IMG/VR virus record: IMGVR_UViG_2534681773_000020
Reading direction: 5' to 3' (one strand)
DNA: 20,815 nucleotides
DNA from: a virus
Taxonomy: Duplodnaviria > Heunggongvirae > Uroviricota > Caudoviricetes
Of the stretch, positions 4,529 to 18,162 are shown one piece after another. Positions within the stretch are counted from its first letter, which is position 1; every line of letters begins with the position of its first letter. The notes under the pieces are model-generated. The model searched no databases, was not told the origin of the DNA, and saw only the letters and a program-made list of their open reading frames with translations. Position numbers and translations under genes: made by a program.

Positions 4529-4586
4529 AAAAAGGGCGGCAGAGCAGTCACGGAGTAAAACTGATACCGCCAAACGTCACCAGAAA
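4529..4586 (-). ncRNA. dicF: DicF-like small regulatory RNA (about 53 nt plus U-tract)
   Basis: Reverse complement of 4534-4586 reads TTTCTGGTGACGTTTGGCGGTATCAGTTTTACTCCGTGACTGCTCTGCCGCCC followed by TTTTT, matching the recalled E. coli DicF sequence; located between upstream ORF and dicB as in the Qin dicB operon. Confidence 0.6.
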
Positions 4587-11140: not shown

Positions 11141-12010
11141 ATGACCACTATTACCAAAGAACGTATTGAATTGTTCATTAAAAATCCGCTTGAAAACGGG
11201 CTTACCCGTGGTGAACAAATGGAACTGGCACGGATTGCGCTGGCATCGCTGGAAGCAGAGCCGGTGGCAAAGATTATAGCTCATTACCCATTAGGGGTTG
11301 ACGTAGGCAAACAAAAATTTGTACAGGCCATTAGAGAGCTTCCTGACTTTGGCGGATATCTATTTGCCGCCCCTCCAGCGCCGATAGTGCCGGAAGAAAT
11401 GTATTGGCAGGATGCGCCAGTTGAAGGCAGCAGCAAAGCGGCTGCATACGCTACAGGCTGGAACGATTGCCGCGAAGCCATGTTTCAGTCCGGAAACTTT
11501 CGGGAAAATAAAGATTCGTCAACCAATAATTTTCGGAAAATCCCGGAAGCGTCAACCAGCTCTCCGGTAACTCCGGCTCTTCTGCCTGGTGGTTTCACCA
11601 TTGAGGAGGCGAAGGAATTACATGAAGACCTGGCACGCAGCCACATAAGCAAGGCCTTAAGTGGCGAAAAGATGAAAAAGAAAGATCGCGATGCTGATTT
11701 GCGCTGGATTCATGGCGTTATAGTTCAGGCAGCGTGGTTTGTAAAAGCATCACTGGAGCAGAATGCACTATCGGGCAACTATCCGGTAACTCCGGATAGT
11801 TGGATAAGCTGTAGTGAGCGAATGCCGGATACCAAAACAGCCGTTCTTGTTGCCAGGGATTTTGGCAGGAAAGGTGACTGGCGAATGAAATGGGCGACTT
11901 ACATCCCGGGGCATCCTGACGCTAATGATGGGTGGATAATACCTGGTGCGTCGTGGATACCATCACACTGGATGCCTCTACCAGAACCGCCGCAGGAGGT
12001 GCGCCAATGA
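11141..12010 (+). CDS. DUF551 domain-containing phage protein (289 aa)
   Basis: AAGGAG SD 6 nt upstream; C-terminal WIIPGASWIPSHWMPLPEPP resembles the DUF551 signature seen in nin-region proteins. Confidence 0.7.
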   Translation: MTTITKERIELFIKNPLENGLTRGEQMELARIALASLEAEPVAKIIAHYPLGVDVGKQKFVQAIRELPDFGGYLFAAPPAPIVPEEMYWQDAPVEGSSKAAAYATGWNDCREAMFQSGNFRENKDSSTNNFRKIPEASTSSPVTPALLPGGFTIEEAKELHEDLARSHISKALSGEKMKKKDRDADLRWIHGVIVQAAWFVKASLEQNALSGNYPVTPDSWISCSERMPDTKTAVLVARDFGRKGDWRMKWATYIPGHPDANDGWIIPGASWIPSHWMPLPEPPQEVRQ

Positions 12011-12084
12011 ACTGGCCTGAAGCATTTGCAATTACAGGCGTTGCTATGGCTATCGCTTTTTTAGTATATGTTATTTGTCGGTGA
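12007..12084 (+). CDS. Tiny hydrophobic ORF (25 aa, MNWPEAFAITGVAMAIAFLVYVICR), putative small membrane peptide
   Basis: ATGA start-stop overlap with DUF551 gene; single predicted TM helix; not in the ORF track because under 60 aa. Confidence 0.3.
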   Translation: MNWPEAFAITGVAMAIAFLVYVICR

Positions 12085-12125
12085 GGGTAAAAACGTTCGC
12101 CGGGATTAACACCAAAGGAGGGAAT

Positions 12126-12230
12126 ATGTCGGATGATATATCACTGGCAATGGAAGGTGCGCTGGCTGTTGTTGCTGTTGTGGGCGTTTACTGCCTGGTT
12201 GTGTTTTTGATGGATCGACTAGGGAACTGA
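12126..12230 (+). CDS. Tiny hydrophobic ORF (34 aa, MSDDISLAMEGALAVVAVVGVYCLVVFLMDRLGN), putative small membrane peptide
   Basis: Strong SD AAGGAGGG 5 nt upstream; one TM helix; followed by 22-bp perfect palindrome. Confidence 0.45.
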   Translation: MSDDISLAMEGALAVVAVVGVYCLVVFLMDRLGN

Positions 12231-12238
12231 ATTCATTA

Positions 12239-12475
12239 CGATATGGGAATTCCCATATCGGGTAAAAACGGTTTGCGGTAAAGCGAGAGTTAAGTAGAAT
12301 TGCTGCGGGTGCTTGAGGCTGTCTGCCTCGGGCATGCCACCGTAAGGCAGACAGAGAAAAGCCCCAGTTAACATTACGCGTCCTGCAAGACGCTTAACAT
12401 TAATCTGAGGCCCAATCTATGCTTCACAAACGTAGGTTAGCCTCTTACGCGCCGAAAGGCAAGGAGAAGCAGGCT
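12239..12475. promoter_or_regulatory. Structured leader/regulatory region upstream of hok-like toxin (candidate mok-leader and antisense Sok-like RNA region)
   Basis: 22-bp perfect palindrome CGATATGGGAATTCCCATATCG (12239-12260); 10-bp inverted repeat CTGTCTGCCT/AGGCAGACAG (about 12319-12354); direct repeat TTAACATTA x2 flanking GCGTC/GACGC hairpin (about 12368-12402). Confidence 0.4.
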
Positions 12476-12631
12476 ATGAAGCAGCAAAAGGCGATGTTAA
12501 TCGCCCTGATCGTCATCTGTTTAACCGTCATAGTGACGGCACTGGTAACGAGGAAAGACCTCTGCGAGGTACGAATCCGAACCGGCCAGACGGAGGTCGC
12601 TGTCTTCACAGCTTACGAACCTGAGGAGTAA
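12476..12631 (+). CDS. hokD: Hok/Gef-family type I toxin (51 aa)
   Basis: MKQQKAMLIALIVICLTVIVTALVTRKDLCEVRIRTGQTEVAVFTAYEPEE matches the Hok family signature and the recalled HokD/RelF sequence; AAGGAGAAG SD; in-frame upstream extension from 12419 may correspond to a mok-like frame. Confidence 0.8.
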   Translation: MKQQKAMLIALIVICLTVIVTALVTRKDLCEVRIRTGQTEVAVFTAYEPEE

Positions 12632-12700
12632 GAGACCAGGCGGGGGAGAAATCCCTCGCCACCTCTGATGTGTCAGGCATCCTCAACGCACCCGCACTTA

Positions 12701-12727
12701 ACCCGCTTCGGCGGGTTTTGTTTTTTC
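12701..12727 (+). terminator. Intrinsic terminator after hok
   Basis: AACCCGC-TTCG-GCGGGTT stem-loop followed by TTTTGTTTTTT. Confidence 0.6.
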
Positions 12728-12798: not shown

Positions 12799-13071
12799 AT
12801 GGTGCACAAAACCAAATTTCACAATTCTGATACCGACCTTGCCATCCGGCATGGGCGGCGTTCACACGCATTTAAAACCGACTGGTACCAACACCCACCA
12901 TGTACTGAAGAACAGGCCGAATGGCTAATTCATAACTACCGCAGACGCGGATACGAGATTAAGAAAGCCCTCAGCCTCGATTATCGTCACTGGATAATCT
13001 ATGTCAGGCTCCCTTATTCCGAACGCCCACCGCGTCCGTCCCGCACATTCCAGCAACGCATCTGGAGGTAA
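12799..13071 (+). CDS. Hypothetical protein (90 aa), Rem-like position
   Basis: ORF between hok and DUF968 gene, same arrangement as rem between hokD and ydfU in Qin; weak SD. Confidence 0.5.
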   Translation: MVHKTKFHNSDTDLAIRHGRRSHAFKTDWYQHPPCTEEQAEWLIHNYRRRGYEIKKALSLDYRHWIIYVRLPYSERPPRPSRTFQQRIWR

Positions 13072-13072
13072 C

Positions 13073-14128
13073 GTGCGGGTATTACTTCGACCTGTTCCGG
13101 TACCGGAACTTGGGCTGGTGGTGCTAAAACCGGGCCGTGAATCCATGCAGGTATTTCATAACCCTCGAGTTCTGGTGGAGCCGGAACCGAAAAGCATGCG
13201 CGGTCTGCCGTCCGGAGTCGTTCCTGCTGTTCGCCAGCCGCTGGCGGAGGATAAATCATTACTGCCATTTTTCAGCGATGAGCGGGTGATTCGTGCTGCT
13301 GGTGGTGCTGGTGCATTGTCTGACTGGCTGTTACGCCACATTAAATCCTGCCAGTGGCCTCATGGTGACTACCATCACAGTGAAACCGTCATACATCGTT
13401 ACGGTACCGGCGCGATGGTGTTGTGCTGGCACTGCGACAACCAGCTGCGTAACCAGACTTCCGAATCACTCGGGCAGCTTGCTCACCAAAACCTGTCAGC
13501 ATGGATGATTGATGTCATCCGCCACGCAATGAATGGCACGCAGGAGCGGGAATTATCGCTGGCTGAATTATCCTGGTGGGCAACCATAAATAACGTAGCG
13601 GACGCACTACCGGAGACGGTGTTACGTCGTTCACTGGGATTACGCGCGGAAAAAATTCGCTCAGTATACCGCGAGAGCGACATCGTGCCGGGAGAGCAGA
13701 CCGCCACCAGCATGCTGAAGCAGCGCACAAAAAATATTGCGCTACTGCCTCACGCCCACCAGCAAAACCCGCCACAGGAAAAGACGGTGGTAAGCATTGC
13801 CGTTGATCCGGAGTCACCGGCTCAGTATCTCCAGCGCCAGAAACCACGACGGGAAGAGATGCCTGTATACACGCGTTGGGTAAAAACGCAGAAATGCATG
13901 ACGTGTGGTAATCAGGCAGATGATCCGCATCACATCATTGGTCATGGACTGGGAGGGATGGGAACAAAGGCTGATGATTTGTTTGTTATTCCGCTGTGCC
14001 GTAAATGCCATAGCGAACTACACGCCGGGGTAAAAGATTTTGAAGAAAAACACGGCAGCCAGCTGTTGTTGCTGATTCGTTTTTTAATGCACGCGAGAAA
14101 TTCGGGTGTCCTGAAGTGGAAAGCATGA
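13073..14128 (+). CDS. DUF968 (YdfU-like) protein with C-terminal Cys/His HNH-like zinc motif
   Basis: GTG at 13073 with GGAGG 4 nt upstream, immediately after previous stop (ORF track ATG alternative 13001); C-terminal CMTCGNQADDPHHIIGHGLGGMGTKADDLFVIPLCRKCHSELH. Confidence 0.65.
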   Translation: MRVLLRPVPVPELGLVVLKPGRESMQVFHNPRVLVEPEPKSMRGLPSGVVPAVRQPLAEDKSLLPFFSDERVIRAAGGAGALSDWLLRHIKSCQWPHGDYHHSETVIHRYGTGAMVLCWHCDNQLRNQTSESLGQLAHQNLSAWMIDVIRHAMNGTQERELSLAELSWWATINNVADALPETVLRRSLGLRAEKIRSVYRESDIVPGEQTATSMLKQRTKNIALLPHAHQQNPPQEKTVVSIAVDPESPAQYLQRQKPRREEMPVYTRWVKTQKCMTCGNQADDPHHIIGHGLGGMGTKADDLFVIPLCRKCHSELHAGVKDFEEKHGSQLLLLIRFLMHARNSGVLKWKA

Positions 14129-14494
14129 ATGACTGAACGCATAGAATTTGTTTTGCCTTACCCGCCAACGGTGAACACTTACTGGCGACGTCGTGGCAGC
14201 ACATATTTTGTATCAAAAGCCGGTGAGCGTTATCGCCGTGATGTGGCGCTTATTGTTCGCCAGCAGCGGCTGAAATTAAACCTGTCCGGAAGGCTGGCGA
14301 TAAAGATTATTGCAGAGCCACCGGATAAACGTCGTCGTGACCTGGACAATATCCTGAAAGCACCACTGGATGCGCTGACGCATGCCGGACTTCTCATAGA
14401 CGACGAGCAGTTTGATGAAATCAATATTGTGCGCGGTCAGCGCGTTCCTGGGGGACGGCTGGGCGTGAAGATTTACAAAATTGAGAGTGAGTGA
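14129..14494 (+). CDS. rusA: RusA Holliday junction resolvase
   Basis: 121 aa; start abuts previous stop; RusA-family motifs LPYPPTVNTYW and RRDLDNILKAPLDAL. Confidence 0.85.
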   Translation: MTERIEFVLPYPPTVNTYWRRRGSTYFVSKAGERYRRDVALIVRQQRLKLNLSGRLAIKIIAEPPDKRRRDLDNILKAPLDALTHAGLLIDDEQFDEINIVRGQRVPGGRLGVKIYKIESE

Positions 14495-15045
14495 TCGTAA
14501 ATATGATATACCCGGAAATTACAGGCAAAAGCGGCGAGCATTTACGTCTAAAAACGCTGGAAGCCGTCTGGATCCAGGGGAAATTACGGATGTGGGGGCG
14601 TTGGTCGTATATAGGTGGTGGCAAACCAGGAAATATGTTCAATCAGTTGCTGGCATCCAAAAAACTGACAAAAACCGCAATCAATGAAGCCCTGCGTAGA
14701 ATCAGGGAGTCAGGGATTGATAAACCAGAGCTGGAAGCATTCTTGCGAGAGATGATCGCTGGCAGACAGAAGAGCTGGTTGTCTCACTGTACTGATGCAG
14801 AGGCGTTACGCATTGATGGGGTGATAAGTAAAGCGCTTGCACGTTATCCTGGATTGATTGATATCCTGCGGCAAAGGTACGAAGGGCGGGGGATGAGTAA
14901 ACGCAAAATGGCTGAATTGTTGAATGAGGTGCACCCGGAATGGTGTTTTAGTACATGCGAAAAGCGAATTGCTAATTGGTTGGCTGTTGCTGAATATGCG
15001 CTATACATCCCTATGCGAGAATCGTTTGCTCAAAAAATGTCTTGA
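14491..15045 (+). CDS. Q: Late gene antiterminator Q-like protein
   Basis: 184-aa ORF (GTG 14491, or ATG 14503) directly upstream of a short intrinsic terminator and the late genes; position and size match Q of 82/Qin-type phages. Confidence 0.7.
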   Translation: MIVNMIYPEITGKSGEHLRLKTLEAVWIQGKLRMWGRWSYIGGGKPGNMFNQLLASKKLTKTAINEALRRIRESGIDKPELEAFLREMIAGRQKSWLSHCTDAEALRIDGVISKALARYPGLIDILRQRYEGRGMSKRKMAELLNEVHPEWCFSTCEKRIANWLAVAEYALYIPMRESFAQKMS

Positions 15046-16723: not shown

Positions 16724-16799
16724 GGCCCTTTAGCTCAGTGGTGAGAGCGAGCGACTCATAATCGCCAGGTCGCTGGTTCAAATCCAGCAAGGGCCACCA
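16724..16799 (+). tRNA. ileZ: tRNA with anticodon CAT (Ile2 lysidine-type or Met; resembles ileX/ileZ class), CCA encoded
   Basis: Cloverleaf folded by hand: acceptor GGCCCTT/AAGGGCC, D-stem GCTC/GAGC, anticodon loop CTCATAA, T-arm GCTGG-TTCAAAT-CCAGC. Confidence 0.85.
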
Positions 16800-16899: not shown

Positions 16900-16976
16900 G
16901 CGTTGTTAGCTCAGCCGGACAGAGCAATTGCCTTCTAAGCAATCGGTCAGTGGTTCGACTCCACTACAACGCGCCA
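16900..16976 (+). tRNA. argO: tRNA-Arg (anticodon TCT), CCA encoded
   Basis: Acceptor GCGTTGT/ACAACGC, D-stem GCTC/GAGC, anticodon stem ATTGC/GCAAT with loop CTTCTAA, T-arm AGTGG-TTCGACT-CCACT. Confidence 0.85.
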
Positions 16977-17741: not shown

Positions 17742-17922
17742 TTTTTTTATTTGCTGTTTATTAAAAACACTTCTGCATGGTGAATCCCCCTGTGCGGAGG
17801 GGCGACTGGTGTAGGTAGCATTTATTATGTTATAGGCAAGCCGACGCGGGTTCAGTGACACCGGCTGAATTCACCGGGAGGCACCCGGCACCATGCAAGA
17901 AAAAGAATGTGTATGCAAACAT

Positions 17923-17948
17923 GCCCCTCTCCGGAGGGGCATTTTTTA
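17923..17948 (+). terminator. Intrinsic terminator
   Basis: GCCCCTC-TCCG-GAGGGGC stem-loop followed by ATTTTTTAT. Confidence 0.55.
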
Positions 17949-18162
17949 TGGGTAAAAAATGCCCGAATGGGTTCGGGCAATAGCATGAGATACTGATATT
18001 GTTGTGTTGTTATCGTGTGGATTTTAACCAGGGTTTATCAGGCTGCGCAACTGCGTGGCCTTTTTTCATTTCTTGGGCTGTAGTCCCCGTGTGTCATTCA
18101 GGCTTCCGGACTACAGCCCACTCCATATCTGATTTAATACACTATCCCGGCCGGGAGGAATA

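Follow-up and report, generated by a model that had tools for sequence, protein, structure and literature searches.

The window analysed here is a 20,815-nucleotide stretch of viral DNA (IMG/VR record IMGVR_UViG_2534681773_000020, Caudoviricetes). It covers the early region of an Escherichia coli lambdoid prophage, with the order int, cI/cro, replication genes, nin-like region, Q, tRNAs and SASA esterase. Our subject is the short segment between a gene ending in a DUF551 domain and a hok/mok/sok toxin-antitoxin locus. This segment holds two very small open reading frames (ORFs) and a palindrome:

12007-12084, plus strand: ORF1, a 25-amino-acid (aa) micro-protein with one predicted transmembrane (TM) helix, coupled to the preceding gene through ATGA (from the sequence, IMG/VR variants and substitution counts)
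12126-12230, plus strand: ORF2, a 34-aa micro-protein with one predicted TM helix and a strong Shine-Dalgarno (SD) sequence (WP_001278454.1 of the Prokaryotic Genome Annotation Pipeline, PGAP; ribosome profiling, RIBOseq, of the Sakai orthologue, PMC5597208)
12239-12260, no strand: the perfect 22-bp palindrome CGATATGGGAATTCCCATATCG, two 11-nt arms (from the sequence)

ORF1 encodes MNWPEAFAITGVAMAIAFLVYVICR (25 aa) and ORF2 encodes MSDDISLAMEGALAVVAVVGVYCLVVFLMDRLGN (34 aa). Each peptide has one hydrophobic stretch of 19 residues, with Kyte-Doolittle means of 2.45 and 2.70, respectively, against a usual membrane-helix threshold of 1.6. Since 57 ORFs of at least 20 aa are present in 3.5 kb here, ORF1 and ORF2 do not stand out from chance by themselves and their status as genes rests on comparison. 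Both reading frames bear the mark of purifying selection in the form of a frame-specific synonymous excess, to which ORF1 adds a fixed length, a conserved start and in-frame indels. An earlier note on this DNA, made from the sequence alone, had proposed two tiny ORFs with a single hydrophobic helix each; the helices are found as described and conservation indicates that the ORFs are genuine.

ORF1, a coupled cistron behind different phage genes

The ATG of ORF1 (12007-12009) overlaps the TGA stop of the DUF551 gene (12008-12010) in the sequence ATGA (12007-12010). It is preceded at 7 nt by AGGAGG (11994-11999), which can be read within the last codons of the Ea22-like/DUF551 gene. With this start/stop overlap and an SD inside the upstream gene, ORF1 has the layout of a translationally coupled terminal cistron, as the earlier note had held. 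The same coupled junction is found in loci L005, L007 and L008 and in phages 933W and Av-05. Three different upstream C-termini precede ORF1, all with the common junction GGTGAATCAATGA, and the mobile unit is therefore the SD together with ORF1. The end of the DUF551 gene plus ORF1 also occurs in other contexts of E. coli genomes at 76-78% nucleotide identity. A programmed -1 frameshift fusing DUF551 to ORF1 was rejected, because no slippery heptamer is present and the SD-ATG layout is kept behind unrelated upstream C-termini.

Relatives of both peptides were searched with degenerate DNA patterns, as the peptides are very short. For ORF1, a scan of IMG/VR yielded at least 120 loci. Alignment of the relatives gives a family form of 27 aa, M-x-WPEAF-TM-(C/F)RWG-stop, of which the window copy lacks the last two residues through a TGG>TGA change. 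Every distinct nucleotide variant in IMG/VR (42, later 57) is 84 nt long; the start codon among the 42 is ATG in 40 and GTG in one, and one variant has none. An in-frame deletion of 6 nt is seen in L002 and L003. Codon-position entropy (.49/.20/.82) is highest at the third position and lowest at the second. On a minimum spanning tree of the 57 distinct variants we counted 67 synonymous and 79 non-synonymous changes (p=2e-6), which is a synonymous share of 46% against 27.8% expected, while the shifted frames yield only 17/121 and 13/125 synonymous/non-synonymous changes. These counts replaced the pairwise Nei-Gojobori (NG86) ratio of non-synonymous to synonymous rates (dN/dS), which failed to tell frame 0 from frame +1. 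A variant with Asp in the helix is common (15 copies in the IMG/VR sample).

The tblastn search places the ORF1 family in at least 92 phage records, including 933W, VT1-Sakai, VT2-Sakai, BP-4795, Min27 and the virulent phage Av-05. In 933W the homologue carries no annotation and lies directly upstream of hokW/sokW. It is also unannotated in the Stx1a (Shiga toxin 1a)-converting phage Stx1_14040 (LC567819.1) and in the RefSeq annotations of the examined E. coli genomes. For this family the word 'unannotated' in the earlier note mostly holds, apart from sporadic 27-aa 'hypothetical / putative prophage protein' entries in GenBank. Among the species representatives of GTDB only E. coli, Shigella flexneri and one mis-binned contig contain the motif; in the representatives of the two named species an intrinsic terminator comes after ORF1. 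Downstream of ORF1, the IMG/VR loci continue straight to hok (47 loci), to ORF2, the palindrome and hok (35) or to sequence without hok (40). On these grounds ORF1 is very likely to be a genuine gene.

ORF2, a translated small gene next to hok

GGAGG at 12117-12121 stands 4 nt ahead of the ORF2 ATG, which bears out the strong SD reported earlier. ORF2 is identical with the PGAP-annotated protein WP_001278454.1, and its orthologue in E. coli O157:H7 Sakai is ECs_5710 (XECs145). For this ORF the claim of missing annotation does not stand, as it has been published as a translated small gene. In Sakai prophage Sp6 the arrangement ORF1-ORF2-palindrome-hok is the same as in the window, and the Sakai ORF2 differs by V16I. 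Hücker et al. 2017 (PMC5597208) describe XECs145 with a longer ORF model and a predicted inner-membrane location. Their values, in reads per kilobase per million (RPKM) and with RCV for ribosomal coverage value, are as follows:

LB: RNA RPKM 79.1, RIBOseq RPKM 346.1, RCV 4.35, coverage 0.99
BHI: RNA RPKM 121.3, RIBOseq RPKM 150.1, RCV 1.14, coverage 0.84
Cold/osmotic stress: RNA RPKM 73.3, RIBOseq RPKM 1.1, RCV 0.01, coverage 0.37

The earlier note had named a lack of ribosome occupancy and of frame conservation in related prophages as what would speak against it. What we find is the opposite: the frames are kept in related prophages, and footprints lie on the Sakai orthologue of ORF2 (PMC5597208, S2 Table). 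The RIBOseq supplements for O157:H7 strain EDL933 (PMC5331693) list neither the ORF1 nor the ORF2 peptide.

A homologue search with a 51-aa in-frame extension of the ORF2 peptide gave 29 clusters only, all at least 82% identical and from E. coli wherever the source was named. Some of these clusters are frameshift variants or fusions of ORF1 and ORF2. The natural fusions (P0008, P0009 and P0001) are 74 aa long with two helices and arise via 1-nt changes in a G-run or T-run; errors in sequencing the homopolymers could account for them, or the variants may be real. Sampling of hok-upstream regions without reference to ORF2 brought out a divergent subfamily B, MLVLKCALAIAAVMAIYCLAVVLMDHLSD, which has a GTG or ATG start, an SD, a stop about 10 nt from the hok -35 and no palindrome. 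The divergent subfamilies all retain the core ...AIYCL..V.LMDRLSD. Two more variants, and nothing more distant, came from a profile search that covered 1.84 billion representatives; one of the two lies directly before hok. Against phage records, tblastn gave no match for subfamily A and matches in 4 phages for subfamily B. The 23-codon core has 49 synonymous and 44 non-synonymous changes on the minimum spanning tree (p=1e-7), a synonymous share of 53% against 26.8% expected, with 16/67 and 14/71 (synonymous/non-synonymous) in the shifted frames. Together with the footprints, this makes it highly probable that ORF2 is a genuine gene.

A scan with the ORF2 family core returned 117 loci with enough flank. 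In 111 of these, among them phage Tritos and L385, the hok 5' untranslated region (UTR) begins 46-80 nt past the ORF2 stop, and in 5 loci other sequence follows instead of hok. In most subfamily-B loci no ORF1 comes before ORF2, so the two are separate modules which happen to be neighbours in this window. A promoter scan of the window made no call upstream of ORF2, and there is no terminator between ORF2 and hok. Upstream of subfamily B a conserved TTGAAT-17-CATATT can be read by eye, which is below threshold and was not called by the scan. On the minus strand, two sigma-70-like sites lie in antisense orientation, one (12150-12123) to the ribosome-binding site of ORF2 and the other (12091-12063) to ORF1; their number does not significantly exceed that expected from shuffles, and neither is succeeded by a terminator.

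Two further contexts of ORF2-like genes were observed. Shigella flexneri pCP301 (L388, AF386526.1 219920-220006) and about 124 Shigella virulence plasmids carry an intact, unannotated ORF2-like gene, MLVLKGTLAIAAVMTIYCLIVVLMERFSD, approximately 300 bp upstream of icsP/sopA and followed by the hok promoter and a truncated remnant of the hok 5' UTR. In some prophages (L225 3282-5182, minus strand) the cassette of ORF2 subfamily B and hok comes after two apparently A+T-rich genes (415 and 227 aa), which are possibly defence-type cargo.

Neither peptide, nor any of the variants, matches a family in Pfam, PHROGs or NCBIfam, and no Rfam match runs across ORF1 or ORF2. In E. coli K-12, yfdS (DUF551) is followed by yfdT rather than ORF1, and relBE precedes hokD; in these two regions, to which the comparison was confined, no named homologue is present.

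A palindrome and a 175-bp cassette at the hok border

The palindrome consists of two 11-nt arms that are 100% complementary and have no spacer, exactly as the earlier note had it. It is unique in the window even when 3 mismatches are allowed. The chance expectation of a perfect 22-bp palindrome is 20815 x 4^-11 = 0.005 per window, and it is therefore not a product of chance. Its half-sites are not enriched in the window (6 found against 4.5 expected). As RNA, it would form a hairpin of 9 bp with -16.4 kcal/mol (z=-3.45). The sequence that follows is GGGTAAAAACGG on the plus strand and TAATGAATTC on the minus strand. A role as intrinsic (Rho-independent) terminator was rejected, since there is no U-tract or T-run on either strand and the terminator scan makes no call.

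The palindrome recurs upstream of hok in three flank contexts; in the window, about 58 nt separate its centre from the downstream 5' end of the hok mRNA. In the context of the paa adhesin (L006 and many IMG/VR loci) it stays with hok while ORF2 is gone, and homology to the window begins within the last two codons of ORF2. In the third context (L037, L164 and L172) the flanks differ on both sides and the palindrome is 18 nt further from the -35. Perfect symmetry is kept in 72 of 89 copies over the three contexts, a count in which many loci were retrieved with the palindrome itself as query. The conservation check that the earlier note had suggested has a double outcome: the element recurs in front of hok, but it is absent from half of the loci with ORF2 and hok. 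The earlier note had also treated the palindrome as an appendage of the two ORFs, whereas the comparison ties it to the upstream edge of the hok locus. In these alignments the palindrome behaves as an accessory to the hok module, optional and placed at its upstream (left) edge.

The same 18-22-mer is also contained in KilA-N-type genes from a great diversity of phages, giant-virus contigs among them (IMG/VR loci L138, L151, L155, L160, L163, L165, L167, L170, L173, L175-L177 and others). A KilA-N gene relic was rejected as origin of the palindrome, because the matches extend over a 22-23-mer only, in which GAT ATG GGA ATT CCC ATA TCG encodes a conserved DMGIPIS. By rough estimate, these occurrences reflect codon coincidence plus ascertainment and not homology with the element upstream of hok.

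A repeat search, covering a feature that the earlier note had omitted, shows that ORF2 and the palindrome together form a discrete segment:

12085-12095, no strand: direct repeat GGGTAAAAACG, copy 1, left edge of the 175-bp cassette of ORF2 and palindrome
12260-12270, no strand: direct repeat GGGTAAAAACG, copy 2, start of the sequence common to hok loci without ORF2

In L005, in 933W and in the 47 IMG/VR loci mentioned above, ORF1 is joined straight to the hok promoter. What these loci lack is precisely the stretch of ORF2 and palindrome that the 11-bp repeat bounds.

The hok/mok/sok locus and its surroundings

Also omitted from the earlier note was the toxin-antitoxin locus that begins about 45 nt past the palindrome. 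The features on either side of the segment are:

11141-12010, plus strand: Ea22-like mosaic early gene with C-terminal DUF551 domain (Pfam PF04448 DUF551, E=6.7e-19; phrog_60)
12272-12300, plus strand: inferred hok promoter, -35 TTTGCG/TTGCGG at 12272-12278 and -10 TAGAAT at 12295-12300 (read from the sequence)
12307-12721, plus strand: complete hokD-type hok/mok/sok type I toxin-antitoxin locus (Rfam, Pfam HOK_GEF, PHROG 251, terminator, and PGAP 'hokD' in relatives)

The Rfam family sok RF01794, a model that covers the hok 5' UTR, matches 12307-12481 with 116 bits. Within the locus, mok spans 12419-12631 and hok 12476-12631, and the ORF at 12419-12631 matches Pfam HOK_GEF at 3e-23. The 3' fold-back region of hok is present and a terminator lies at 12700-12717. 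The -10 TAGAAT is kept in most hok-upstream variants, with TAGGAT, TAAGAT and TAAAAT also seen. An equivalent promoter, TTGGCG-17-TAGAAT, was called in L286; the -35 of the window is too weak for the promoter scan. A weak, sub-threshold isrK-like Rfam match at 12640-12721 is only the 3' end of this locus. For the related hokW-sokW of Stx2 phage Sp5/933W, expression from the prophage state has been reported (Takada et al. 2021, PMC8621323).

Compared with complete E. coli genomes, the 2.8-kb surroundings have a best match of 97.6% and none at 100%. DUF968-RusA-Q follows at 13001-15045, downstream of ORF1 and ORF2, and the lysis region lies beyond 18 kb. A Rem-like ORF of 90 aa (phrog_1212) at 12799-13071 overlaps the listed start of the DUF968/HNH gene (13001-14128) by 71 nt; in reality DUF968 probably begins further downstream, where PGAP places its start in relatives. 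Elsewhere in the window, Rfam matches at gathering level are STnc100 at 17749-17953 (plus strand), the anti-small-RNA AgvB at 17954-18015 (minus strand), DicF at 4534-4585 (minus strand) and tRNAs at 16724-16796 and 16900-16973 (plus strand). This is a small-RNA load typical for prophages of enterohaemorrhagic and enteropathogenic E. coli.

Interpretation of the locus

The explanation we favour, and hold to be somewhat better than an even bet as a whole, is that three separable phage modules have been joined here: ORF1, ORF2 and a palindrome at the edge of hok. ORF1 would be the terminal coupled cistron of an Ea22/DUF551-type early gene, translated whenever that gene is expressed. Together with its SD it would recombine as a unit behind different genes, both in temperate coliphages and in some virulent ones, whether or not hok follows. 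ORF2 would be an accessory ('moron') gene expressed in the lysogen, with its own strong ribosome-binding site. Because the ORF2 family is almost always found immediately upstream of the hok promoter, ORF2 and hok would appear to travel together as one cassette. For the palindrome, the most likely role would be a hairpin, in RNA or in DNA, by which the border between upstream transcription (of ORF2, or read-through from the operon) and the hok promoter is marked or insulated.

Several observations weigh against this explanation. Plain co-inheritance could account for the linkage of ORF2 and hok; 933W and 47 loci have hok but no ORF2, and 5 loci and the Shigella virulence plasmid pINV have ORF2 but no hok. 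For ORF1, some copies are pseudogenes (L004 has TAG as its third codon, L010 a deletion), the copy in the window is truncated, and the helix of the Sakai Sp6 copy (L390 1546-1629), MIWPEAFAITGVAIAIDFLVYVICRWG, contains an Asp at its middle. ORF1 also falls below the 30-aa cut-off of the Sakai study (PMC5597208) and so outside its expression data. For ORF2, the region is multi-copy in Sakai, so that RIBOseq reads are possibly multi-mapped, and the published ORF model of XECs145 overlaps the 3' end of ORF1. The relatives of both all come from Escherichia/Shigella elements, except for a Salmonella-labelled ORF1 protein fragment, two Salmonella phage records and one Actinobacillus phage record. 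Divergence is shallow, and the substitution counts are partly dependent through shared ancestry. Judged by hydrophobicity alone, both peptides are probably small single-pass inner-membrane proteins. Finally, the palindrome has no U-tract, is lacking in half of the ORF2-hok loci, including those of subfamily B, and exists in imperfect copies (a 1-nt arm deletion or a mismatch). Given these absences and defects, any function of it is dispensable.

That ORF1 and ORF2 are not genes at all, and owe their conservation to recent common ancestry or to an overlapping non-coding element, seems very improbable. It would fit that relatives all come from closely related Enterobacteriaceae elements, that the ORFs are very short and that some copies are broken or frameshifted. 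Yet the synonymous excess is specific to the frame (46% for ORF1 and 53% for ORF2, against 27-28% expected and 10-19% in shifted frames), lengths are fixed, indels are in frame, SD and start codons are conserved, and ORF2 carries ribosome footprints. Hardly more credible is the proposal that one or both peptides are type I-style membrane toxins, silenced by an antisense RNA and killing by membrane depolarisation, a toxin role that the earlier note had raised. Both peptides are short with a single hydrophobic helix, as are Hok, TisB, Ldr and ZorO, and share the generic size and hydrophobicity of type I toxins; a real type I locus adjoins them, and RNA from the minus-strand promoter-like TTGCCA-16-CATATT at 12150-12123 would be antisense to the ORF2 ribosome-binding site. 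But such sites number 3 against 0.9 +/- 0.9 in shuffles, which is not significant, no minus-strand terminator comes after them, and this one is not conserved in subfamily B, whose start region differs. Neither peptide matches HOK_GEF at E<=1 or any toxin family in Pfam, NCBIfam or PHROGs, and ORF1 is an ordinary coupled cistron. Above all, the ORF2 orthologue is not repressed: it is efficiently translated in healthy, growing lysogens (RCV 4.35 and RIBOseq RPKM 346 in LB, PMC5597208), which disfavours the toxin role. We infer that neither peptide is a strong toxin at its native level. Nor do the other roles suggested in the earlier note gain ground: as lysis modulators the ORFs are poorly placed, in the early region and more than 5 kb from any lysis cassette, and for inhibition of a host factor there is no evidence here.

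A functional partnership of ORF2 with Hok is also unlikely. Here the ORF2 family would be a third protein component of prophage hok/sok cassettes that modulates the activity or expression of Hok, either by tuning its insertion and toxicity or because ORF2 expression sets the activity of the hok promoter. The palindrome would take part in that control by regulating or insulating the promoter, and ORF1 would be a widespread early membrane micro-protein with its own host target, encoded in 933W and Sp5 without being annotated there. The position of the ORF2 stop 46-80 nt ahead of the hok 5' UTR in 111/117 loci, across subfamilies that differ at most synonymous sites, agrees with such a partnership, as does the subfamily-B stop at about 10 nt from the hok -35. 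Both ORF2 (PMC5597208) and hokW-sokW (PMC8621323) are, moreover, expressed from the prophage state. Nonetheless, hok functions without ORF2 (hokW-sokW of Sp5/933W has ORF1 alone upstream), ORF2 persists without hok, and ORF2 shows no sequence similarity or obvious complementarity to Hok. The tight adjacency is equally expected from a small co-inherited cassette.

For the palindrome, an operator bound by a dimeric DNA-binding protein that controls the hok promoter or ORF2 is a doubtful candidate. A perfect 11+11 bp dyad, with its centre about 58 nt ahead of where the hok mRNA begins, occupies a classic position for an activator or upstream repressor, and the core of 18-22 bp is kept while the flanks vary in three contexts. 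On the other hand, the window offers no second copy and no enrichment of half-sites, no regulator gene visibly co-varies with the element, and it is missing from half of the ORF2-hok loci and from all ORF1-hok loci. The shift of 18 nt in the third context is contrary to a phase-dependent activator site. It is more conceivable, though still on the unlikely side, that the palindrome has no function: it would be a scar left by recombination, a quasi-palindrome that template switching has made perfect, or a short sequence that draws illegitimate recombination to the places where modules join. Its position coincides exactly with mosaic breakpoints, and it is flanked by the 11-bp direct repeat that bounds the 175-bp insertion/deletion; it is dispensable, copies with a 1-nt defect persist, and the same 18-22-mer arises by codon coincidence in unrelated KilA-N-type genes. 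Against this stands the symmetry retained in most copies (72/89) in three flank contexts, though many of these were retrieved with a palindrome query.

Relation to known systems and significance

Small single-pass membrane proteins of E. coli include regulators such as MgrB and AcrZ as well as prophage morons, and ORF1 and ORF2 are like them in size, in a helix with short polar ends, in strong ribosome-binding sites and in poor annotation. Morons are expressed from the prophage in a lysogen, as is ORF2. However, neither peptide has homology to any named member, and ORF1 is a coupled last cistron rather than an autonomous moron. Expression from a repressed prophage has been recorded for ORF2 only (RNA and footprints in uninduced Sakai, PMC5597208). 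The neighbouring locus belongs to the Hok/Gef family (PF01848), as does hokW-sokW, and ORF1 and ORF2 resemble Hok in being short single-helix peptides. Unlike Hok, they have no mok leader, sok target, fold-back structure or periplasmic Cys-containing tail, and ORF2 is freely translated. Like an intrinsic terminator or a hairpin that stabilises an mRNA end, the palindrome can form a stable 9-bp hairpin soon after a stop codon, but it differs in the missing U-tract, in a stem with 4/9 G-C pairs and in also occurring without a preceding ORF.

XECs145/ECs_5710 of Sakai prophage Sp6 is the same gene as ORF2, and WP_001278454.1 is annotated on an identical DNA stretch. ORF2 is thus already known as an annotated and published, uncharacterised translated small gene. 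The ORF in the publication (PMC5597208) has 54 codons and begins at a non-canonical start, against 34 aa from the SD-ATG start proposed here; the authors describe no function, family or link to hok. The ORF2 family, the corrected start and the positional coupling to hok appear to be new, being apparently undescribed in the literature searched. ORF1 is a conserved, largely unannotated phage micro-gene.

Summarizing, the segment of ORF2 and palindrome offers a worked example of a 175-bp cassette indel in the phage mosaic, with an 11-bp repeat at its bounds. Of the 'novel small genes' of O157:H7, ORF2 is among those with better support. A link in function between ORF2 and Hok would, if true, be the most interesting reading; without it the correction of the annotation is still useful. 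Small membrane proteins are systematically under-annotated, and the two described here are conserved in medically important Stx phages and in other lambdoid phages.

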